64,000 nt of DNA from Rectinemataceae bacterium (GCA_035531315.1 DATKTD010000340.1:4731-68730), one strand, 5' to 3'; counted from the stretch's first letter, positions 20,628-32,762 are shown. Notes: generated by a model not told the origin, from the sequence alone. Made by a program: numbers and translations.

Positions 20628-20662
20628 AAAAAGAGCCATCCGCGAGGATGGCTCTTTTTTTT
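20628..20662. terminator. bidirectional intrinsic terminator (tRNA-Pro / dnaE2)
   Basis: A5-GAGCCATCC-GCGA-GGATGGCTC-T8. The T-run on the plus strand and the A-run (T-run on the minus strand) flank a 9-bp stem. The dnaE2 stop codon at 20662-20664 abuts it. Confidence 0.85.
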
Positions 20663-23622
20663 CAAGGATCGGACGGATTTGGGCTCGGCGTGGCCCTCGC
20701 CTTCTCGATACTCGAGATAGTGACCGTGATCGCCCCACGATCGTCTTCAACTAGTCCCCTGATGACGAGTGGCCGCTGTTCGAACAGAAGGTGCCGATAG
20801 AGCTCATACTCCTCGGGGAAGAGGGTCGTCTCGTAGAGCGCAGTCTCGTCCTCGAAGGAGAGGAACTCCATTGTCTCATCCTCGGAGGTCAGAACAGATT
20901 TTGCCGTTATCGGCCATCCGACGAGCTCGACTCGCCGACCTACGAGGGCGGGGATATCCTTGCCGAGCACCCTTGTCTTCGATACCAATAGGCCCGGCCA
21001 TAGCTCAAGGGGATGGACTTCCAGGGTCGTCCCCAAGTAGCGCATATCGGACTCGAGTTGCTTTCTTGCCGATTCGCGTTTCCGCTTCCGAAGCGGCACT
21101 ACCGGGCCATCGGCCTCGAAGAGTTCGCCTTGCTTATCGCTATGCCTTTCGCTGACCGCTTGGACCGAGAGTAGGCGCATGAGCTTGGCTGCGCTCGACA
21201 GTTCGCTCGAAACCGAGTCTACCGCGCCGGAACCGACAAGAGCTTCGGCGTCGTCTCGGCCGGGCCCTACCCGTCTCGCGAAGTCGTCGATTGAGACATA
21301 GCTGCCGCCACGCCTCCGCTCCTCGACGATCCTCTTCACGGTCGCTGAGTTGAGGGAGCCGATCATCTCGAGACCGAAGCGAATGGTCCTCCCCTTCCCT
21401 CTACACCGAAAATCGCTGTCGTTAATGTCTGGAGACAGCAGATTGAGTCCCATCCTGCGCGATTCGCTCGCATAGGCCAAAGTCGAGTAGAAGCCGCCGT
21501 GGTTCGACATAACCGCCGCCATGAACTCGGCCGGGTGATGCCTCCGAAGGTAAGCCGACTTGAAGGAGAGCATCGCGTAGCTCGCGCTATGCGCCTTGAC
21601 GAAGGAGTAACCGGAGAACGACTCGATCATGGCCCAGACATCGGCAACAGTCTTCTCGTCGACGCCTTTTGCCTTGGCTCCAGCGAAGAACTTTGCGCGA
21701 TACGTCTCGAGCCTGATCTTCACGTCTTTCTTCGAGAGGACCTTCCTGATGCCGTCCGCCTCGGCGGCCGTGAAGTCCGCCAAGGCCACGGCAGCTTTGC
21801 AGGTATCCTCCTGGTAGCACATGATCCCGTAGCTCTCGTCGAAGAGCCCAACGAGGAGGGGGTGGAGCGGAGGATACTTCTTCCCACGTAGCCTATCGAC
21901 GTACTCGTTGATGTACTTGTTGGCCGCGGGCCTGATGATCGACGAGTGGATCACGAGGTGCTCGAAGTCCCCGGCCTTCGTCTTCTTCTGCAGGAGGCGC
22001 ATCGCGGGCGACTCGACATAGAAGACGCCCATGGTGTCGCCCCGCGCTATCAGCTCTACGGTTTCGGGATCGTCTATGGGCATCCACGCCGTTTCGTCGA
22101 TCTCTGTTCCATTCTCTCGAAGGTTGGCGAGGGCGTCGCGGACTACCGCCAGGGAGCGATTGCCGAGAAGGTCGATCTTCACGAGCCCCGCGTCTTCGAC
22201 TCCTTCCTTGTCCCATGCCGTTACTCGGATACCCGTGCCCGTCCTCTCGAGCGGCACGTGACTCGACAGCTCATCCGGCACGATGATGACGCCGCCCGAG
22301 TGAACCCCCAGATGGCGAGGGAAGCCGACTATCCTGTGCGCGAGGCTCGCGATCTCCTTCCAGATCTCGTCGACATCGCCCATCGCCTTTTCCGCGTCGA
22401 TAGTCGTCGAGCGCTCGAAGGCTCCTATCTCACCGTCGGGCATTCCGTAGGCATGGGCGGCTTCCCTGAGCGCCGACCGCGACTGGAAGCAGACATGGTT
22501 GGCCACTCGCGAGGCCCGCGTCTCGCCATACTGGGCTATCACCTTGGCGAGCAGCTCATCGCGCTCGTCCCAGGCAAAGTCCACGTCTATATCCGGCGGG
22601 TCCTTCCGGCCGGGGTTGAGGAAGCGCTCGAAGTAGAGGCTATGTCGGATGGGGTCCACGTCCGTGATCCCGAGGCAGTAGGAGACGATGCTCGCGGCGG
22701 CGCTGCCCCTCCCGCATGTTCTCGACGCCTTCCGCGCGATCTCCCTAACGACGAGAAAGTAATCGGCGAAACGCTTCTCGTCGATGACCCCGAGTTCGTA
22801 CTCGACACGCTTTCGGATAGGCTCGGTGAGTTCCCCATAGCGCCGTCGCGCTCCCTCATAGACCAGCTCGCGCAGCATGGCCGTCGAGCCGCCATTCGTT
22901 TCAGCCGGACCAAAGGCCGGGAAGACGAATCCGCCGAAAAGGCTAGTCTTCACAACGCGTTCGACGAGGGCCTCGTTCTCCTCGAGGGCCTCGGGTAAGT
23001 CGGCATAGATCTTTAACAGGGTATCCGGGCTTGGCAGCAAAGACGAGTCGCTCGCGAGCTCCTCCTCGCGGACCTCCGATACGGTCTTCTTCTTTCCTAT
23101 GGCGACGAGGAGCCGCTGCAAGGACCTATCTTCCGGAACCAGGAAGCGGACCTCTCCCGTCGCCATGCAGGGCGAGCCCCTTGCCTTGAGACGCCGCCAT
23201 GAGGCTTTGTCGACGGAGGAAGCGAGCGCATAGAGTCCGCCGCGCCCCTGGCCCGTTTCTAGAAGCGCGATGTCGTCGGTGATTACCGCAAGGCCATCCA
23301 GGTCGGCGAGGATGGCCGCTCGGGCGTCGAAGGCTCCCGCCGCGCGCTCGGTGAGAAGGCGCGTTATGCGCGAGAATCCCCGATCGTTCTCCGCGATGAG
23401 GACGGCCCGTCCGCCCTCGTAGACGAGCTCCGTTCCGAGAATCGGCTTCAGGCCCGCGCTGTCGCAGGCCTCTATGAAGGTCGGCAGTCCATGGACGCCG
23501 TTACGGTCAGTCAGGGCGATGGCGCCATACCCCAGCTCCCTCGCCCGTTTGGCGAGGTCGGCGGGTGGGATCACGCCATAGTGGAAGGAGTAGGTCGAGG
23601 ACACGAGGAGCGGCGCGATCAT
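20662..23622 (-). CDS. dnaE2: error-prone DNA polymerase III alpha-like subunit DnaE2 (ImuC)
   Basis: 986 aa. PHP N-terminus: MIAPLLVSSTYSFHYGVIPPADLAKRARELGYGAIALTDRNGVHG. Pol III alpha core: GRGSAAASIVSYCLGITDVDP, PPDIDVDF, FSGYSFVKAHSASYA. Its ATG overlaps the imuB stop (ATGA). Confidence 0.92.
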   Translation of the reverse strand: MIAPLLVSSTYSFHYGVIPPADLAKRARELGYGAIALTDRNGVHGLPTFIEACDSAGLKPILGTELVYEGGRAVLIAENDRGFSRITRLLTERAAGAFDARAAILADLDGLAVITDDIALLETGQGRGGLYALASSVDKASWRRLKARGSPCMATGEVRFLVPEDRSLQRLLVAIGKKKTVSEVREEELASDSSLLPSPDTLLKIYADLPEALEENEALVERVVKTSLFGGFVFPAFGPAETNGGSTAMLRELVYEGARRRYGELTEPIRKRVEYELGVIDEKRFADYFLVVREIARKASRTCGRGSAAASIVSYCLGITDVDPIRHSLYFERFLNPGRKDPPDIDVDFAWDERDELLAKVIAQYGETRASRVANHVCFQSRSALREAAHAYGMPDGEIGAFERSTTIDAEKAMGDVDEIWKEIASLAHRIVGFPRHLGVHSGGVIIVPDELSSHVPLERTGTGIRVTAWDKEGVEDAGLVKIDLLGNRSLAVVRDALANLRENGTEIDETAWMPIDDPETVELIARGDTMGVFYVESPAMRLLQKKTKAGDFEHLVIHSSIIRPAANKYINEYVDRLRGKKYPPLHPLLVGLFDESYGIMCYQEDTCKAAVALADFTAAEADGIRKVLSKKDVKIRLETYRAKFFAGAKAKGVDEKTVADVWAMIESFSGYSFVKAHSASYAMLSFKSAYLRRHHPAEFMAAVMSNHGGFYSTLAYASESRRMGLNLLSPDINDSDFRCRGKGRTIRFGLEMIGSLNSATVKRIVEERRRGGSYVSIDDFARRVGPGRDDAEALVGSGAVDSVSSELSSAAKLMRLLSVQAVSERHSDKQGELFEADGPVVPLRKRKRESARKQLESDMRYLGTTLEVHPLELWPGLLVSKTRVLGKDIPALVGRRVELVGWPITAKSVLTSEDETMEFLSFEDETALYETTLFPEEYELYRHLLFEQRPLVIRGLVEDDRGAITVTISSIEKARATPSPNPSDP

Positions 23623-24944
23623 GACGAATTACCAGACCCTTCGATCGTAGTGCGACACGCGAGGTGTGTCGTGAAATTGAGGTGGGCCTTCGTGTAGCGG
23701 CTCCCAGCTTGACGAATCGCCGGCCGCGATTCGTCAAGCTGGCCAATGCGTATGTCGTGCAACTTTCGAAAGCCGCTATTGTCCTTCACCGTAAAAGTGG
23801 CGCAGGACTCTATCGCGTCGAGCCCGAAGCGGCCATGTATCTTGTCCAGGGCGTTTTGGAGCTTCGATAGCCTCGCGTCTCTAGGCTCGAAGAGATCGAG
23901 CTCAGGTCCGGCGGACTCTATCTCCGAAAGTCGGAGCCCGAGCCGCCTGATCCTCACGCGGCGCTTGCGCGCGGCTTCAAGCGCCGTCTTGGCTATCGCG
24001 GCCAGCTCATCGTCCCTTGCGACAACTCGCGCGATCCTCGCCCTCCCGTAGCTTCGCATCCCGTCGGTGTACCCCAGCTCGACGGAAGCCTGCCTCGCTC
24101 CCCGGCCTTCCTTACGCAACGCGAACCCCAGTTCCGCGACGAGGCCTTGGAGTCGCAGCCTCAGGACTTCCGGGTCGGTCGTGTCGGGCTCGAAGACGAG
24201 GTCGCCGGCGACCGCTCGCCGTTCGGGAGGCTCCGGGTCCACAGGCGATGTATCTACTCCCCGCGCCCTCGTCACAAGCTCGGGGCCTCGGGATCCTATC
24301 GCCCGCGCCTCGCGCTCGGATAGGTCCGCTAGGTCGCCTATCTCGTCGATATCCAACAGGCCGAAGCGCCCCAGCAGCGCGGGACCTACTCCGGGCAGGA
24401 GCCCGACGGGCTGCATGCGTATGAGTCCGCCCTCTTCGTTCGGCGAGAGAGCCACGAATCCGGCGGGGCGGAAGACCCGCGTCGCGACCTTGCTCACGGT
24501 CTTGTTCGTCGAGAGCGCGATGCTCGGCGACAAGCCCGTCTCTTCCCTGATGTCTCTCCGGAGCCTCTGCGCCGCATCCTCGGGAACGCCGAAGAGCCGA
24601 GTAGTGCCGCGGAGATCGATGAATAGGTGCCCTCGTCCCGCGCGCTCCACGATGGGCGTGTACTCGAGGCCGATGCGCCAGAGCCTCTCTTCGGCAGCGG
24701 TGTAGAGCTCGGGGCGCGGGGCCTTGACCTCGAGATCCCTACACAGGTTTCGCGCGAGCGAGAGAACCATGCCGCGACGCAGGCCCTCGCGATGCGCCTG
24801 GGGCGATAGATCGAGAACTACCGAGCGCGGCGCGTCCATGTTCGCCACGACGAAGGGCCGGCCGCGAAGCGACCTGTCGAGCCCTTCTTCGAGCGCGGCC
24901 ATGATGCCGACGGCATTGACGTGGAGGATCGTTCCCGACGACAT
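23619..24944 (-). CDS. imuB: ImuB-like Y-family polymerase homologue (catalytic acidic residues apparently missing)
   Basis: N-terminus ILHVNAVGIMAALEE, where active DinB-type enzymes have hVDhDAFFASVE. Also RGRPFVVAN, YTPIVERAG...LFIDLRGTTRLFG, LPGVGPALLGRFGLLDIDEIGDL. Translationally coupled to dnaE2. Confidence 0.85.
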   Translation of the reverse strand: MSSGTILHVNAVGIMAALEEGLDRSLRGRPFVVANMDAPRSVVLDLSPQAHREGLRRGMVLSLARNLCRDLEVKAPRPELYTAAEERLWRIGLEYTPIVERAGRGHLFIDLRGTTRLFGVPEDAAQRLRRDIREETGLSPSIALSTNKTVSKVATRVFRPAGFVALSPNEEGGLIRMQPVGLLPGVGPALLGRFGLLDIDEIGDLADLSEREARAIGSRGPELVTRARGVDTSPVDPEPPERRAVAGDLVFEPDTTDPEVLRLRLQGLVAELGFALRKEGRGARQASVELGYTDGMRSYGRARIARVVARDDELAAIAKTALEAARKRRVRIRRLGLRLSEIESAGPELDLFEPRDARLSKLQNALDKIHGRFGLDAIESCATFTVKDNSGFRKLHDIRIGQLDESRPAIRQAGSRYTKAHLNFTTHLACRTTIEGSGNSS

Positions 24945-26923: not shown

Positions 26924-28831
26924 TCAGTCTCGGCCCGCCTCCGATCCGAGCACGATGCGATCGTCTCCGGATCGCCTAACGCGGCCATCGCGCTCCATGC
27001 GGTTGAGGAGTGGCAGTATCCACTTCCTCGAGAGCCCCGTCGCGGCCTTTGCCTCGCCGACGCCAAGACGGCTGCCCGCGGGCCTGTGCCCGACGAGGGC
27101 CTGGACGAAGGCCTGGTAGGCCTCCGGCGAGAGGAAGAGCCGTCCATCGAGGCTGATCGCCCGGCCCGCCCGACAGAGGACGCCGAGGGCGTTCTTCGCC
27201 CCCGCCGCGGCCTCGGGGCCCAGGTCCAGACCCTCGCTTCCCGCAGCCTCCAGTCTCCGGGCGAGTTCGGCGAGCGGCTTCGGCAGGGCCGGCGCGCCAG
27301 CCTCGGCCGCGGGCACTACCTGTTTGTTATTGACAATTATGATCTTTTCCGCCGCGAGCCGGCCGATCAAGGAGACCGCGGCCTCCAGGGGAATGCCGAG
27401 ACGGCCCGCGATGCCCTGTTCGGGAAAGCCGCCGGGCTCGCCAGCCGCGGCGACGACGGTGCGGACCGCCGATTTCCAGGATGTCTCCGAGAAGATCCAC
27501 TCGCCGGCCCTCTCACCCGAACGTGGCGCCACGATGCAGTCCTTGAACCGAAGGCATGCCGCGGCGCCCAGGTCGAAGTCCGCCTTCGCAAGGACCGTAT
27601 CGGGCAGATCCCCCTGGGCGAGGGCCAGGGCCTCCTCGATCTTCCGCCTCTCGCCGGCCTCGTGGCCGCCGATGAGAAAGGCGCTTCCCGAAGCCAGAAG
27701 CTCGGCTCCTCCCTTCTGGAGAAGCATCACGGCCTGGCCGAAGGCCACCGCCACCGACAGTTCCGGCGCCAGACGCAGAAAGCCTCCCGTACGCGACGGC
27801 CAGACCCGCGCGTCGCAATGAATGGTGCCGGTAGCCAACTCGAGGCTGACTCCCGCCCTCGGCCTGAATCCTCGCGATCCGGGATCGAGGGCCAGATATA
27901 GGGAACGCGCGGCGAAGTGACCGCTTCCCGCCGCGGCTAGGCAATTTCCGCGGCCGATCGAGGCTCCCGTTCTGGCGAAGGTGATGGCGACGCGGCTGCC
28001 GGGATCGGCGACGGCCACGGGTTCCCCGTATCGCTGGAGGCCGCGAACGCGCAACTTCTCGCCGGAAGGAAGGAGTTCGAGCTCGTCGCCTGCGCCGAGC
28101 CGCCCTCCCCTAAGGCTGCCGGCTACAACCTGTCCCGTCCCCGACAGAATGAATGAGCGATCCACATGGAGGAAGGGCGCGCCTTCGCTTCGCTTCGGAG
28201 CGAGCCTGGCGGGGGCGAAGGCAGGAACGGCGCCGAAGAAAGGGATGAGGCCGATTGGCGCCTTGCCGGAACGCCGATCCTCCGAGACGGCCTCCAGGTC
28301 GCGAATTCCCACGGCAAGCAGCGCGCGAAGCTCGGCTATGCCCTCGCCGCTCAGGGAATCGACGGCAATCCAGGGCGGGCTCCGACGGGTCTGCCCGGTG
28401 GCCCCCATAGCTCCCGTGGCCCCGATCTCGCCGAGCCGCGCCTCCGCCTCCTTGGCCACGAGCCTTGGCCGTCCTGGAGACACGATGGCGCTCTTGGTGA
28501 TGACGAGGGCGATGATGGGCACGCCGAGGGCGGCGAGCACCGCCGCGTGGCGCCTAGTCTGTTCCATCCAGCCATCGTCGGCGGCGATCACGAGCATGGC
28601 CCCGTCGACGCCCGAGGCACCCGCGACCATGTTGCGTATGTAGCGTTCATGCCCCGGGACGTCGATGACGCCGATCTGTATTCCCCCGCTTTCGAAGTGG
28701 GCGAAACCGAGGTCGGTGGTCATTCCCCGCGCCTTTTCCTCGGGAAGCCTGTCCGTGTCCATTCCCGTAAGGGCGGCGATGAGGGCCGTCTTGCCATGAT
28801 CGACATGGCCGGCCGTTCCGATGACGGGCAC
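26924..28831 (-). CDS. selB: selenocysteine-specific translation elongation factor SelB
   Basis: GTG start 2 nt after the selA stop. GTAGHVDHGKTALIAALTG, DVPGHERYIRNM, and a long C-terminal winged-helix region. 635 aa. Confidence 0.93.
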   Translation of the reverse strand: MPVIGTAGHVDHGKTALIAALTGMDTDRLPEEKARGMTTDLGFAHFESGGIQIGVIDVPGHERYIRNMVAGASGVDGAMLVIAADDGWMEQTRRHAAVLAALGVPIIALVITKSAIVSPGRPRLVAKEAEARLGEIGATGAMGATGQTRRSPPWIAVDSLSGEGIAELRALLAVGIRDLEAVSEDRRSGKAPIGLIPFFGAVPAFAPARLAPKRSEGAPFLHVDRSFILSGTGQVVAGSLRGGRLGAGDELELLPSGEKLRVRGLQRYGEPVAVADPGSRVAITFARTGASIGRGNCLAAAGSGHFAARSLYLALDPGSRGFRPRAGVSLELATGTIHCDARVWPSRTGGFLRLAPELSVAVAFGQAVMLLQKGGAELLASGSAFLIGGHEAGERRKIEEALALAQGDLPDTVLAKADFDLGAAACLRFKDCIVAPRSGERAGEWIFSETSWKSAVRTVVAAAGEPGGFPEQGIAGRLGIPLEAAVSLIGRLAAEKIIIVNNKQVVPAAEAGAPALPKPLAELARRLEAAGSEGLDLGPEAAAGAKNALGVLCRAGRAISLDGRLFLSPEAYQAFVQALVGHRPAGSRLGVGEAKAATGLSRKWILPLLNRMERDGRVRRSGDDRIVLGSEAGRD

Positions 28832-28833
28832 GT

Positions 28834-30288
28834 TCAGGAGCCTGCGGCCGGAATTTTTCCGCCGAGGGGGAATAGGGCGGCGCGAAGACTGTCGGCCACA
28901 AGGGCCGGATCCTCGCGATGGAGGGTGCCGAGATCGATGTGCAGCCTGCCCTCCCGTATCGTCGCGACGAGGGGCGGATCGACCGCGCGAAGGAGGGCGG
29001 CGGCCCGTGTCGGGCCTCCGAGCGCGGCGACCAAGACCTCATCGACGACGAGGGCGCGCGACGGGAAGCTCTCGTCGGGTTCCGTGCCTCCGCCCATCGT
29101 GCCGAGAGAGGGCACGAGACCGAAGGCTCCGCGGGGAAATCTTCGTCGCAGGGACCTGCCGAAGCGCTCCAGGACGGCGGTATCGGGAGGCATCGCCATG
29201 CCGACCTCCCCGTTGAGCCTCATAACCAGACGCCGCTCGAGGAGGGAGAGGATGGTCTTTCCGGGCCGAAGGGCCCTCGCCAAGGGATCGGCGGCCATGG
29301 CCGCGATGAGGTCGCGCCGTCCGGCGGCCAGACCCGCCTGTGGCCCTCCCAGGAGCTTGTCCCCCGAAAAGCAGACAAGGGTGGCTCCATCGCGGGCCAA
29401 ACGCGCAAGAGACGCCTCGCCGCCCCGGCCCTCCTCGCTGCAGCCCGAACCCTGATCCACGATGATGGGGAGTCCCGCGGGCAAGGCCGCCACCAGCTCG
29501 GCCAAGGTCGGCTTGGCGGTAAAACCGCGGATGGCGAAGTTGGAACCCTGCACGACGAGGACGCAGGCCGTGGCCTCGCCGACGGCCTTCCGGTAATCCG
29601 CGATCGTCGTCACGTTAGTCGTTCCCACTTCGACGAAGGATGCCCCCGAGAGGGCCAGAATCTCCGGAATGCGAAAGCCCCCGCCGATCTGCACCTGTTC
29701 GCCCCGAGAAACGATGACCTCCCGGCCCGAGGCCAGGGATCGCAGGGCCAGGAGGAGGGCACCAGCGTTATTGTTGAGGACGATGGCCGATTCCGCGCCC
29801 GCCAGTTCGGCGGCAAGGTCGGCGGCGAGGCCGCCGCGCCTGCCCCTCTCCCCGCTTTCGATATCCATCTCGAGATTGCAGTAGCCCGAGTTGACCCTCC
29901 AGGCGGCCTCCCATTCGTCGCGACCCAGGGGGCTTCGGCCGAGGTTGGTATGCAGCACCACCCCCGTGCCGTTGAGCACGGGGCGAAGGCCTCCCTTCGC
30001 CCGGGAGGCCAGGTCCGTGACGAGGGCGACGACGAAGGCATCGAGGTCCCGGGCCGCGTTCATGGACCGCCCGGAAAGGAGACTCGACGGCCGATCCCGA
30101 TCCGCGTCCGCAAGGTCGCGATGCCCGGAAAGCGAAGCATTGGGAACTTCGTCGCGCATCGCGGCCACCGCTTCGCGGACGAGGCGGGCAACCAGGGGCC
30201 GCGACAGGATGGGGAAGAAGGCGGCGATCTCGGGACGCTCGAGGAGGCGCCCGACCGCCGGTGGCCGCGACGAGGGGAGGTCTTTCAT
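28834..30288 (-). CDS. selA: L-seryl-tRNA(Sec) selenium transferase SelA
   Basis: Track ORF 28834..30360, trimmed to ATG 30288 (MKDLPSSRPPAVGRLLERPEIAAFF). LNGTGVVLHTNLGRSPL. FSGDKLLGGPQAGL (PLP lysine). Confidence 0.92.
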   Translation of the reverse strand: MKDLPSSRPPAVGRLLERPEIAAFFPILSRPLVARLVREAVAAMRDEVPNASLSGHRDLADADRDRPSSLLSGRSMNAARDLDAFVVALVTDLASRAKGGLRPVLNGTGVVLHTNLGRSPLGRDEWEAAWRVNSGYCNLEMDIESGERGRRGGLAADLAAELAGAESAIVLNNNAGALLLALRSLASGREVIVSRGEQVQIGGGFRIPEILALSGASFVEVGTTNVTTIADYRKAVGEATACVLVVQGSNFAIRGFTAKPTLAELVAALPAGLPIIVDQGSGCSEEGRGGEASLARLARDGATLVCFSGDKLLGGPQAGLAAGRRDLIAAMAADPLARALRPGKTILSLLERRLVMRLNGEVGMAMPPDTAVLERFGRSLRRRFPRGAFGLVPSLGTMGGGTEPDESFPSRALVVDEVLVAALGGPTRAAALLRAVDPPLVATIREGRLHIDLGTLHREDPALVADSLRAALFPLGGKIPAAGS

Positions 30289-30289
30289 A

Positions 30290-30378
30290 CGGAAGAGGCA
30301 GGAATCGGACCTGCCGTCGCGCGAGGCGCGACCGACGGTTTTGAAGACCGCGAGAGCCACCAGACCCCATCAACTTCC
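30290..30378 (-). tRNA. selC: tRNA-Sec (anticodon UCA), candidate
   Basis: Minus strand: GGAAGTTG-AT-GGGGTC-TGGT-GGCTCT-CG-CGGT-CTTCAAA-ACCG..-GTCGCGC-CTC-GCGCGAC-GG-CAGG-TCCGATT-CCTG-CCTCTTCC-G. It has a 6-bp D stem with a 4-nt loop, a UCA anticodon, a long variable arm and discriminator G. The acceptor stem has two internal mismatches (T-T, T-C) and the T-loop reads TCCGATT, so software confirmation is needed. Confidence 0.6.
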
Positions 30379-30384
30379 ATCATA

Positions 30385-30413
30385 ATTCTAAGAGTCGCCA
30401 TGAGCGGGGTCAA
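30385..30413 (-). promoter_or_regulatory. sigma-70-type promoter of selC
   Basis: Minus strand: TTGACC (30413-30408), a 17-nt spacer, TAGAAT (30390-30385), then 6 nt before the first G of the tRNA (30378). Confidence 0.65.
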
Positions 30414-30450
30414 GTGAAGGGCGGCCGAAGAGGGATGCCCGTGGAGACGC

Positions 30451-30476
30451 CCGGCGCGGGGGATTCCCCGCGCCGG
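30451..30476 (-). other. 11-bp GC hairpin without a U-tract between the rhodanese gene and selC
   Basis: CCGGCGCGGGG-GATT-CCCCGCGCCGG. It lies 17 nt downstream of the rhodanese stop on the minus strand. Confidence 0.5.
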
Positions 30477-30492
30477 CGAAATCCTCAATCGC

Positions 30493-31374
30493 TCAACGCC
30501 AGGTCAGGATGGCGAATTTGACGTTCGGATCGGCGGCCATCACCTGGGAAGAGCCGTCGAAGCTGCGGACGTCCTTCCAGCCGAGGCTCTCGGAGAGGAT
30601 CCACCACCAGGTCGTGGCGAGGACGCCCGAATCGCAATACACGATCGTCTCGACTCCCGGGGCGAGGCCCATTTTATTGACAATTCCCCCGAGTTCAGCC
30701 ACGGGTTTCACGAGGCCATCGGCCGTCGTGATCCAGCCGCTGGGCAGGGGGATGGCGCCGGGAAGATGGCCGGCCTGGGCCACGAAGGCCTGTTTGGTCA
30801 AGCCGAAATAGGTATCGTAGTTTCGGGCGTCCACGATCTGCGCGCCCTTGGCCCCGAGGATGGCGGCCTTGTCGGCGAAGTAGGCGGGGACCCACTTCAC
30901 GACGAAGCTGCCTTTCATCGCCTTGACCGGCTCTGTCTGCACCGCCTTCCCGGCCTTGATCCAGGCGGCGTAGCCCCCGTCGAGGATGGCCACGTTGTCG
31001 AGACCGGCATACTTGAGGGTCCAGCCGACGCGGGTGGCCCAGGCGAGACGGCTTCCGTCGCTCTCGACCACGACGACGAGAGAATCGGCCCCGACTCCCG
31101 CGGCCTGAAGGACGTCGGTGAGGTCGTCGGCGGGCGGAACCTCGTTGTTGATGCTGCCGTTCTTGACGTAGACGCTCGCGCCGATGACGTTGACCGAAGC
31201 GGGGATGTGACCCGCCTTGTAGTCCTCGACCTTGCGCATATCCATGATTACGAGCCGGGGATTGGACGCGGAGGCCTCGAGCCAGGCCGGATCCACGAAG
31301 GCCGCGATGTCCCGCGCCGAGGCCAACGGCGCGAGGACCGCCAGCCCGATCAACACTGCCAGTAGTTTCTTCAT
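30493..31374 (-). CDS. periplasmic two-domain rhodanese (thiosulfate sulfurtransferase-like)
   Basis: RBS GGAGGAGG. Signal peptide MKKLLAVLIGLAVLAPLASA. The N-terminal domain is inactive and the C-terminal domain has the catalytic loop VYCDSGVLAT. Confidence 0.85.
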   Translation of the reverse strand: MKKLLAVLIGLAVLAPLASARDIAAFVDPAWLEASASNPRLVIMDMRKVEDYKAGHIPASVNVIGASVYVKNGSINNEVPPADDLTDVLQAAGVGADSLVVVVESDGSRLAWATRVGWTLKYAGLDNVAILDGGYAAWIKAGKAVQTEPVKAMKGSFVVKWVPAYFADKAAILGAKGAQIVDARNYDTYFGLTKQAFVAQAGHLPGAIPLPSGWITTADGLVKPVAELGGIVNKMGLAPGVETIVYCDSGVLATTWWWILSESLGWKDVRSFDGSSQVMAADPNVKFAILTWR

Positions 31375-31386
31375 GTCACCCTCCTC

Positions 31387-32607
31387 CTATTTTTCGAAAG
31401 TGAAAATGAGCTTGTCGTTGGCCGCGGAGCCGCCCGCCGGCAGACTCCCGGCGTCCAGGAAATGCTCCCGCCTGTCGTGGCAGGTCGAGCAGTCGCGGGT
31501 CCTGTCCGTCCGCTTCTTCGTGTTATGCGGCACGGTGTCCCAGAAATTCGGAAGGGCGTCGAAGGAACTCGAGGCTATGCCCGCCTTCGCGAAAGTATCG
31601 CGGACCGCCGGCACCAGCCTCAGGGTGCTGAGCTGGCCGGGCTTCCTCGGATTGTTACCGAGCACGAACTGCGGGCTTGCGCTCGCCCCCTCGCCGAGAT
31701 GGCAGGAGGAGCAGCCCCTGTATTCGCTCGACGAATGGCAGGCCGAACAGGAAACCTTGTCGCCGTGGATCGCGTGGGCCTGACTGCCCTTGTCGGTCGT
31801 CTCGGAGCCGGGAGCGTGGCAGGCGGAGCAGCTCGGCTTCTCGGCGACCGACCTCCTGTCGGGATAGGCGACACCCCTGCCGTGGAGCTCGAGCGGGCGA
31901 TGGCAATCCACGCAGCCCATGCCGTTCTGGTAGTGGATGTCGGCGTTGCCGCCGTAATCGCCGGTGAATTCCGGATAGACCCTCCCGCCGTGACAGAGGG
32001 CGCAGGTCTTGCCCTCGTCCTTGCGGATGAACTTGTGTCCGGCGATGAGCCCGAGATCGACGCCGGAAACCGTGGGGCTCTTGACGTGGCAGTCGCCGCA
32101 GGTCGCGTGACAGGAGCGGCAGGATTGCTCGAAAACCTTCTTGTCAAAGATCGCCGACTCGGCCGCGGAAAAACGCGGACGAACGCCGTTTTTCATGCCG
32201 GAGTCCGTGAAATGAAGGGACAGGGAATAGTCGCGCGCGATGTCACCGTGGCAGGGAGCGCAGGTCGAGGGATTGTCCGAGGGCCTCTTGATGAGACCGA
32301 CATGGGCCTTCGCCTTTTCGCCGGCGCCTTCGTCACCTCCATGACAGGAGACGCAGCCTTGGCTGAGATGGGGATCGCTCTTGATCAGGGAGGCGTCGAC
32401 GACGAGTCCCTTGTATAGTTCTTCCGCCCGAACCGGGGGAGGAGCGCCAGCTCAGCCCTCGGCCTCGGACTCGACGATCGGAGGAGGCAGATAGAGGGCC
32501 TTCATCTTCGCGTCGTCCGAATGACAGGCGACGCAGGTAGACCCCCCGGCATAGGCGCCAATTCCCGCCAGGGCAAGTCCGGCCACCAGAAATATGGATC
32601 GTTTCAT
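31387..32607 (-). CDS. undecahaem c-type cytochrome with one in-frame UGA (candidate selenocysteine at residue 52)
   Basis: ATG 32607 has AGGAGG 8 nt upstream. Signal peptide MKRSIFLVAGLALAGIGAYA. The only in-frame stop is TGA at 32454-32452, and the frame continues into track ORF 31387..32196. There are 11 CxxCH motifs: CVACH, CVSCH, CAPCH, CRSCH, CGDCH, CALCH, CVDCH, CSACH x2, CSSCH, CSTCH. The C-terminal 269 aa is certainly a multihaem cytochrome; the read-through is inference. Confidence 0.72.
32422..32443 (-). promoter_or_regulatory. candidate SECIS-like hairpin downstream of the in-frame UGA
   Basis: mRNA: UGA GCU GGC GCU CCU CCC CCG GUU CGG GCG GAA. A CCC/GGG (or CCCG/CGGG) apical stem closes a GGUUC (or GUU) loop and is extended by CC/GG and U/A pairs across a bulged C. 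The loop starts ~17 nt after the UGA. The structure is weak and hand-folded. Confidence 0.35.
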
Positions 32608-32637
32608 CCACTACCTCCTGTGAGTGTCGTTGCCACA

Positions 32638-32665
32638 ACTATAGTAAAGAAAATATTAAATGCAA
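32638..32665 (-). promoter_or_regulatory. putative sigma-70-type promoter of the cytochrome-rhodanese operon inside an AT-rich island
   Basis: Minus strand: TTGCAT (32665-32660), a 16-nt spacer, TATAGT (32643-32638), leaving a ~25-nt leader with AGGAGG. Confidence 0.35.
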
Positions 32666-32762
32666 ATATATAAATATATTTTCATCTATATAAGTCCAAG
32701 ACCTTGTTGAACTCCCCAGACTTGGTCCCGAAAGTGGGGATCGGGGCAACAATTCACGATCC

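Follow-up and report, generated by a model that had tools for sequence, protein, structure and literature searches.

A widespread family of multihaem cytochromes with a predicted selenocysteine, its periplasmic rhodanese partner and its linkage to selC-selA-selB in spirochaetes

Why does a gene for a periplasmic multihaem cytochrome, interrupted by an in-frame TGA codon and followed by a gene for a secreted rhodanese, lie directly beside the genes for selenocysteine (Sec) insertion, and what might the two proteins do together? This arrangement is found on the minus strand of a 64-kb stretch of DNA (64,000 nt; henceforth referred to as the window) from a metagenome-assembled genome of the Rectinemataceae (Spirochaetota). 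Judged by sequence comparison, the feature is more general than the initial annotation of the window could see: the cytochrome belongs to a widespread family of candidate selenoproteins that annotation has missed and that is accompanied by a rhodanese in most loci. We consider the window cytochrome a strong selenoprotein candidate, with a TGA that almost certainly encodes Sec, on all the computational grounds set out below. We further assign a probability of roughly 60% to the reading that the block consists of two units, namely a periplasmic cytochrome-rhodanese redox module that would act as a sulfur/selenium reductase and the machinery that would decode its UGA codon. The gene order, coordinates and spacings that the initial annotation gave for the minus strand are correct and all five elements are there. 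The features of the block are as follows:

32638-32666, minus strand: promoter-like site (TTTGCA-17-TATAGT) in an AT-rich island 5' of the cytochrome gene (9/12 in a consensus scan)
8 nt before the ATG at 32607, minus strand: AGGAGG, ribosome-binding site of the cytochrome gene
31387-32607, minus strand: gene for a periplasmic 11-haem c-type cytochrome, 406 codons (from translation; Pfam Cytochrome_C7 and c3_2)
32452-32454, minus strand: the single in-frame TGA, codon 52, in the motif EG-U-AGAPP
32423-32440, minus strand: hairpin resembling a selenocysteine insertion sequence (SECIS), 11 nt past the UGA, with GU in the apical loop (from folding and alignment A2)
30493-31374, minus strand: gene for a secreted tandem-domain rhodanese, 293 aa (PF00581 twice, E 1.6e-28)
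30448-30478, minus strand: GC-rich hairpin 3' of the rhodanese gene, without a U tract (fold z = -2.1)
30385-30413, minus strand: promoter-like site (TTGACC-17-TAGAAT) directly 5' of selC (10/12 positions)
30289-30379, minus strand: selC, tRNA-Sec with anticodon TCA (ARAGORN; Rfam RF01852, 61.2 bits against a gathering threshold of 47)
28834-30288, minus strand: selA, selenocysteine synthase, 484 aa (TIGR00474, 386.8 bits against a cut-off of 267.9; PF03841, 293 bits)
26924-28831, minus strand: selB, Sec-specific elongation factor, 635 aa (TIGR00475, 213 bits, under the cut-off of 242)

The rhodanese gene starts 12 nt past the cytochrome stop codon, selA follows selC at a distance of 0-2 nt, depending on the tRNA end used, and selB starts 2 nt past selA. 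The parts of the Sec-decoding set encoded by selC, selA and selB are all present, that is, a tRNA with a UCA anticodon, a SelA equivalog and a SelB GTPase with a C-terminal winged helix; despite its score under the TIGR00475 cut-off, SelB passes PF00009 and the winged-helix model PF09107 (36.7 bits).

To what extent the in-frame TGA behaves as a Sec codon can be judged from its conservation. A species-level scan with one genome per species revealed 531 genomes that encode a relative of the window cytochrome, carried mostly by strictly anaerobic fermenters, syntrophs and metal or sulfur reducers, and the cytochrome loci of the best 80 of these genomes were inspected at the DNA level. The 80 loci represent at least three phyla, namely Spirochaetota, Desulfobacterota (Syntrophales, Smithella, Syntrophorhabdaceae, Geobacter sp. 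OR-1 and Pelobacter) and Nitrospirota, together with others. A TGA is present at the aligned codon in all 80, within the motif (E)GEG-U-AG(A/P)PP and with the in-frame peptide kept on both sides, and four distant subfamilies of ~30-35% identity (L091 and L095-L097) share it at the aligned site. In 84 independent sequences the site is occupied by TGA and never by TAA or TAG, and each of them has a hairpin downstream. The same codon doubles as an ordinary stop in the window, where it ends the rhodanese gene, for example. Encoded 5' of the TGA are the signal peptide and haem motif 1 of the cytochrome, and motifs 2 and 3 come after it but ahead of the next ATG; read-through is thus needed for export and haem attachment. 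The hairpin, which would serve as the SECIS element, starts 10-12 nt past the UGA in every case, the 80 core loci and the four distant subfamilies included, and in columns 18, 30 and 33 of alignment A2 its synonymous third positions hardly vary, if at all, from phylum to phylum. In the distant subfamilies the hairpin is stable and stands at the same offset from the UGA, yet its stem sequences are mutually unrelated; in L097 the loop is UCU, without GU.

Existing annotation treats the TGA as a true stop, which would leave a mono-haem peptide of 51 aa plus a cytochrome with a start of its own, or else a pseudogene. Gene callers indeed give two open reading frames (ORFs), and in GenBank the cytochrome gene appears as two entries, a "hypothetical protein" of 51 aa and a "cytochrome c3 family protein" of 269 aa. 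We find this reading hardly credible, since the part after the TGA has neither a signal peptide nor a conserved start codon, since two invariant haem motifs precede its first ATG, and since the absence of TAA and TAG from the site, the accompanying hairpins and the existence of homologues with Cys at this position all argue against it. A word-indexed protein search with the window cytochrome returned more than 500 homologues, nearly all of which start just past the TGA position, the expected signature of truncated gene calls; when the query was confined to the first 92 residues, a search of the same kind matched nothing but the 51-aa ORF of the window itself. An exhaustive profile search showed Cys at the Sec site, in the motif E/G-G/S-C-G/A-G, in at least 10 of 28 distant full-length relatives; many of these relatives have neither Sec nor Cys there, and no Cys was found at the site within the core family. 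The proposal of the initial annotation that the cytochrome is a selenoprotein candidate is therefore upheld by the TGA in 80 of 80 loci, the hairpin, the Cys-containing relatives and the adjacent sel genes, which place Sec-decoding machinery in the same genome.

Two further observations concern the same codon. An apparent Trp at the Sec site of P0014 (L090 162-1385) was rejected as a replacement, because the DNA has TGA and the gene caller had used genetic code 4, and P0037 likewise has Trp in its public gene call (protein level only). Code-4 gene calls of this kind yield seemingly full-length "W" homologues and are a trap when a Sec-replacing residue is sought. In L097 (TGA at 1183) a Cys directly precedes the Sec (GGC-U-GG), a CU pair as listed for several other selenoprotein families.

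What kind of cytochrome is it? Residue conservation was counted over 73 full-length family members. All 22 Cys residues are accounted for by the 11 CXXCH motifs, every one of which is invariant, and there are 9 further invariant His residues for 11 haems, which leaves two haems without a conserved distal His. Sec52, Met230, Lys200, Lys365, Tyr226 and Tyr296 are invariant or nearly so, and the loop around Sec52, an invariant EG-U-AG(A/P)PP, connects haem motif 1 with motif 2. The window cytochrome gave no match at E<=0.01 to the MccSep/ExtKL model NF040886, the GSU2204 family model was not among its NCBIfam matches, and a search of the PDB by sequence revealed no significant relative. Octahaem tetrathionate reductase (OTR) was considered as an identity and rejected (TIGR04315, 17.4 bits against a cut-off of 375). 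The only haem proteins listed in a 2026 review table of prokaryotic selenoprotein families are ExtKL, the GSU2204 family and the octahaem family. As the curated models, the PDB and the 2026 table give no match, the cytochrome represents a family of its own, one not yet described as a selenoprotein in the literature available; a search for a prior description found none in a literature that it covered incompletely. We also observed that IMG labels several unfused cytochromes of the superfamily (P0005, P0011, P0077, P0111 and P0279) "thiosulfate/3-mercaptopyruvate sulfurtransferase", a label that we suspect was carried over from fused proteins.

The rhodanese accompanies the cytochrome in most loci. 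It is found in 72 of the 80 loci and lies directly downstream, on the same strand and within 500 nt, in 64; it also occurs 3' of Cys-type relatives (P0171 and P0132) and of distant Sec-type relatives (L091 and L095), and P0150 (715 aa) joins the cytochrome and, C-terminal to it, a tandem rhodanese in one protein. In Syntrophorhabdaceae the pair has only unrelated housekeeping genes around it, and no third gene is conserved with it across phyla among the 80 loci. The window and its relatives thus agree with the earlier suggestion that the two proteins form a conserved periplasmic pair. The window rhodanese has a typical signal-peptide-like N-terminus, two rhodanese domains and a single Cys, Cys247, which lies in a six-residue sulfurtransferase-type loop (C-D-[ST]-G-x-x) of the C-terminal domain and is invariant in 65 of 65 partner rhodaneses. 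With two domains and the Cys loop in the C-terminal one, it is a tandem-domain protein of the thiosulfate/mercaptopyruvate sulfurtransferase (TST/MST) type, and its nearest solved relatives are thiosulfate and mercaptopyruvate sulfurtransferases (best 8k55, E 1e-21); its scores stay under the cut-offs of the equivalog models for 3-MST (78.7 against 250) and ExtH (45 against 200).

Rhodaneses can mobilise selenium for SelD in vitro, and the gene sits between the cytochrome gene and the sel genes in the window, so that the rhodanese might be thought to belong functionally to the latter and to supply selenium to selenophosphate synthetase, a role to which the initial annotation had also alluded. 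We regard this as very improbable. The rhodanese carries a typical signal peptide, whereas SelD is cytoplasmic; in at least 55 loci it stands beside the cytochrome gene where no sel gene is nearby; it is fused to the cytochrome in P0150; and a separate promoter-like site precedes selC. The signal peptide and the persistence of the rhodanese with the cytochrome in loci without sel genes make it a partner of the cytochrome and not a donor for SelD.

How might the pair work? We propose a periplasmic reductase for sulfur or selenium compounds that would use Sec together with rhodanese-bound sulfane sulfur. Electrons from a periplasmic or membrane transfer chain would run along the haems to a catalytic haem near Sec52, and the Sec52 selenolate would attack a chalcogen-chalcogen or chalcogen-oxygen bond. 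The substrate might be sulfane sulfur or polysulfide that the rhodanese Cys offers as a persulfide, or possibly selenite, and the adduct would then be reduced to sulfide or selenide in a chemistry comparable to that of MccSep. Thiosulfate, polysulfide, tetrathionate and selenite would all be candidates, and the evidence does not discriminate among them. That the 22 Cys residues all belong to CXXCH motifs and that two haems have no conserved distal His suggests a catalytic rather than a structural Sec. With no spare Cys in the cytochrome, a second nucleophile would have to be the rhodanese Cys, or Sec would ligate a haem.

Several characterised systems offer points of comparison. In Geobacter sulfurreducens, polysulfide and selenite are reduced by MccSep (ExtKL, GSU2937-2936), a multihaem selenoenzyme of the periplasm; it has 5 haems, a haem-ligating Cys239 and, within an Ig-like domain at the C-terminus, Sec325 (motif DGUP), and spirochaetes go unmentioned in the paper that describes it (PMC13510729). 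MccSep and the window family have in common that they are multihaem c-type cytochromes of the periplasm, that they have a single Sec encoded by UGA together with a SECIS-like hairpin, that they were mis-annotated as two ORFs, and that they occur mainly in anaerobic Desulfobacterota and Nitrospirota; in addition, the ext cluster of G. sulfurreducens that encodes MccSep also includes a gene for ExtH, a rhodanese-like protein. In contrast to MccSep, the window family has 11 haems, carries its Sec at position 52 in an N-terminal loop and has no Cys outside the CXXCH motifs, so that where MccSep pairs Sec with a haem-ligating Cys the window family has no spare Cys for such a pairing. In Wolinella succinogenes, the periplasmic rhodanese-fold protein Sud binds sulfane sulfur on a Cys and is thought to pass it to the respiratory reductase PsrABC. 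Sud resembles the window rhodanese in being a periplasmic rhodanese-fold partner of a (here putative) reductase; the differences are that the Psr reductase is a molybdopterin enzyme and Sud a single-domain protein, whereas the window has a haem selenoprotein candidate and a tandem TST/MST-type rhodanese. OTR (TIGR04315; 1sp3) is likewise a periplasmic multihaem cytochrome that acts on sulfur compounds, with 8 haems as opposed to 11, and some of its members are annotated as selenoproteins (PMC13188914).

A number of observations weigh against the reductase module as we propose it. The window hairpin is no stabler than shuffled sequence (z = -0.2), and covariation in the core family is sparse, with few compensatory changes and with double changes in 3 cells only. 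The covariation is weak because the same stretch is also under strong protein-coding constraint, and we therefore give weight instead to the synonymous sites that do not vary and to the distant subfamilies, whose hairpins are unrelated in sequence. A paralogous clade has a genuine Ala (GCA, P0020) or Arg (CGA, P0042) at the Sec site, as checked in the DNA, which indicates that the residue is dispensable in some contexts. An AlphaFold model was made from P0020, with Ala at the Sec site (mean pLDDT, the predicted local distance difference test score, 75); because pLDDT falls below 50 at residues 47-77, around the Sec site, we draw no conclusion on the distance between Sec and haem. A Foldseek search of the PDB with this model revealed no significant solved relative, the top, non-significant match being the OTR structure 1sp3 (E = 0.24; template modelling score, TM, 0.37). 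Among the loci examined, the pair has no linked gene for an electron donor such as a membrane quinol dehydrogenase. Finally, 17 of the 80 loci, from several lineages, have genes for arsenic or metal resistance no more than 8 kb from the pair (L013, L015, L021, L023, L024, L028, L033, L035, L039, L042, L044, L045, L046, L052, L065, L078 and L079); these genes encode ArsR/SmtB, ACR3 (404 bits), thioredoxin-type ArsC and a SaoE/SO_0444-like permease, and they could hint at a metalloid substrate or at an island context. As an aside on the paralogous clade, L088 retains the hairpin sequence downstream of the former Sec codon, which suggests recent Sec loss.

These observations, together with the haem and residue counts, invite other accounts of what the Sec and the pair are for. 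Sec could be the distal axial ligand of one c-type haem, which would make a natural His/Sec haem, a selenium analogue of the His/Cys haems found in TsdA, SoxXA and MccSep; we hold this only tentatively and think it somewhat unlikely. It is suggested by the 11 CXXCH motifs set against 9 further His residues, by the lack of Cys outside the motifs and by the alternation of Sec and Cys, and Sec would then form a Se-S or Se-Se substrate adduct on the haem, with the rhodanese Cys as the second nucleophile. TsdA and SoxXA share with this picture a catalytic chalcogen at a c-type haem and sulfur substrates, and the Sec/Cys alternation would fit; they differ in that no sequence relationship was found, in that they have 1-2 haems per subunit and are oxidative, and in that ligation of a haem by Sec is hypothetical here. 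An unlikely account, to which the resistance genes could point, is that the module serves periplasmic detoxification or respiration of selenite, tellurite or arsenic-sulfur species and was recruited into metal(loid)-resistance islands. The 17 loci concerned come from Spirochaetota, Geobacter sp. OR-1, Pelobacter, Deferrimicrobiaceae and other Desulfobacterota, the weak NCBIfam matches of both proteins are to families of selenite/tellurite operons (ExtM, ExtN and ExtH), and MccSep also reduces selenite (PMC13510729). However, most loci, including the window, have no such neighbours, the count is inflated by the shared ancestry of the spirochaete loci, and the neighbours found in Geobacter sp. 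OR-1 are genes for an ATPase subunit, a SaoE-like permease and a cation diffusion facilitator (CDF) transporter, not arr. The rhodanese loop, too, is of the six-residue sulfurtransferase type and not the C-X5-R of rhodanese-fold arsenate reductases.

The direction of the reaction and the part played by Sec can also be read differently. Periplasmic rhodaneses accompany sulfur-oxidation systems, and the cytochrome might accordingly oxidise thiosulfate, sulfide or persulfide, with Sec in place of the haem-ligating Cys and the electrons fed into the haem chain. TsdA and SoxXA oxidise sulfur compounds with the help of a haem ligated by His and Cys (PMC13510729), two haems here have no conserved distal His, and Sec is the sole chalcogen residue not engaged in haem binding. 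We nevertheless judge an oxidative enzyme distinctly unlikely, given that the carriers are mostly strict anaerobes, that the pair has neither a terminal oxidase nor an acceptor linked to it and that the only characterised multihaem selenoenzyme is a reductase. It is more improbable again that the cytochrome merely transfers electrons, with Sec as a non-catalytic ligand or redox tuner and the rhodanese as the actual catalyst. The paralogous Ala/Arg clade still keeps all haem motifs, and many distant relatives have neither Sec nor Cys at the site, as such a role would allow; yet Sec is kept in 80 of 80 core genomes despite its cost, its alternation with Cys in relatives is the usual signature of a catalytic redox residue, and the Ala/Arg clade occurs in a different operon, which consists of the cytochrome, an additional cytochrome of 655-665 aa and a short rhodanese (L088 1142-2401; L089 5001-6257).

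Returning to the periplasmic reductase with a catalytic Sec, why are its genes joined to sel genes? The sel linkage was counted over ~27 informative spirochaete loci, i.e. those with enough sequence, and ~47 loci of other phyla. With selD counted, sel genes are near the pair in 17 of the former and in 0 of the latter, and selC-selA-selB lies 3' of the pair in Spirochaetota only. The linkage noticed in the window therefore recurs in related genomes, as comparison of gene neighbourhoods shows. That it forms one co-oriented block is true as regards orientation and the short gaps; it probably comprises two transcription units, however, because a promoter-like site before selC is conserved. The pattern CTTGAC-N17-TAG[TGA]AT precedes tRNA-Sec in 13 of 14 spirochaete loci, and in the window the selC site (10/12) is stronger than that of the cytochrome gene (9/12), so that the sel genes are probably a transcription unit separate from the cytochrome-rhodanese pair. 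Between the two lies the hairpin at 30448-30478, a perfect GC stem of 11-13 bp past the rhodanese stop codon, which a terminator scan did not call and which could terminate transcription weakly, mark a processing site or stabilise the mRNA. With a probable promoter of its own, the selC-selA-selB unit would supply the decoding of the cytochrome UGA.

Within this unit the start of selA abuts the 3' end of tRNA-Sec (window 30286-30291; L001 10294-10297; L002 10234-10237). The gap is 0-2 nt in the window, L001 and L002 and 3-6 nt in L003, L032, L068 and L077, which leaves no room for a selA ribosome-binding site. Processing of the tRNA 3' end would, by this geometry, leave a leaderless or nearly leaderless selA mRNA and would couple selA expression to the maturation of tRNA-Sec.

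Other spirochaete loci carry additional genes of the same kind. In Treponemataceae-like loci that extend far enough, selD lies on the opposite strand between the rhodanese gene and selC, and it has an in-frame TGA at the catalytic position (LTSLCSAAG-U-AAK), which makes SelD a second selenoprotein of the island. In ~27 loci, mostly of Spirochaetota, divergent ccsB (ResB-like) and ccsA genes for system II cytochrome c maturation lie directly 5' of the cytochrome gene. The coordinates of these genes are as follows:

L010 11947-12999, minus strand: island selD(U) gene; likewise on the minus strand of L004, L011, L013, L014, L023, L034 and L044
L002 6043-7769, divergent: ccsB/ccsA pair (TIGR03144, 188 bits); also, among others, in L003, L004, L013, L024, L035 and L044

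The fullest island reads ccsA-ccsB / cytochrome(U)-rhodanese / selD(U) / selC-selA-selB and, judging by its predicted genes, is everything needed for making one selenohaem protein. In the Spirochaetota the module would thus be bundled with the genes for its making as a self-sufficient island, of which the window is a reduced form without ccsBA and selD. The initial annotation had already remarked that selD is not in the window, and a tblastn probe that was positive in 9 related loci agrees, finding nothing in the 64 kb.

Sec-insertion genes beside a client are not new in themselves. The initial annotation had contrasted the block with model organisms in which selenoprotein genes are not embedded with the sel genes; this is so for Escherichia coli and does not hold in general, as fdhA and selABC often form one operon, especially where FdhA is the sole selenoprotein (Zhang et al. 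2006, PMC1794560). That arrangement, found for example in Pseudomonadales, has been read as joint inheritance or horizontal transfer of the trait with its client (PMC1794560), and it resembles the present one in that the sel genes lie beside, or in one operon with, the client selenoprotein gene. It differs in that the client here is a multihaem cytochrome, in that the order is selC-selA-selB with selC first under its own probable promoter, and in that the island of relatives adds selD(U) and ccsBA. What is new in the linkage is the client, a multihaem cytochrome, and the added haem-maturation genes.

Multihaem selenoenzymes were established experimentally only in 2026, with MccSep (PMC13510729). 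The window family would be a second such family, unlike MccSep in sequence and architecture, with more haems, another Sec position and a sulfur-carrier partner encoded alongside in most loci. It extends to at least 531 species-level genomes, among them syntrophs, Geobacter relatives, Nitrospirota and free-living spirochaetes, and because its members are annotated as truncated fragments they have been missed by surveys of cytochromes, of selenoproteomes and of sulfur and selenium cycling. Read correctly, the gene adds a candidate periplasmic sulfur, polysulfide or selenite reductase to organisms whose sulfur metabolism annotation fails to predict. The finding also bears on what maintains Sec usage in evolution. 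Should the cytochrome indeed hold a His/Sec haem, the spirochaete island would be a transferable kit for one selenohaem enzyme and an example of a Sec-decoding trait kept without FdhA. The pair is present in a cultured strain, Geobacter sp. OR-1, in which the predictions are directly testable.

Around the block, the window is unremarkable. The flanking genes are housekeeping genes (carAB, DUF6675, LEA_2, DUF72 and dinB/dnaE2), the composition of the block has no GC anomaly and no sign of recent horizontal transfer, and elsewhere in the window a scan for selD and for genes of cytochrome maturation or sulfur metabolism gave nothing relevant. On the minus strand at 20662-24944, a short distance 3' of the sel block, a gene for a Y-family polymerase (IMS domain) shares a few bases with the beginning of a DnaE-like PHP/DNA_pol3_alpha gene, and the pair resembles a mutagenesis cassette of the imuB-dnaE2 type.

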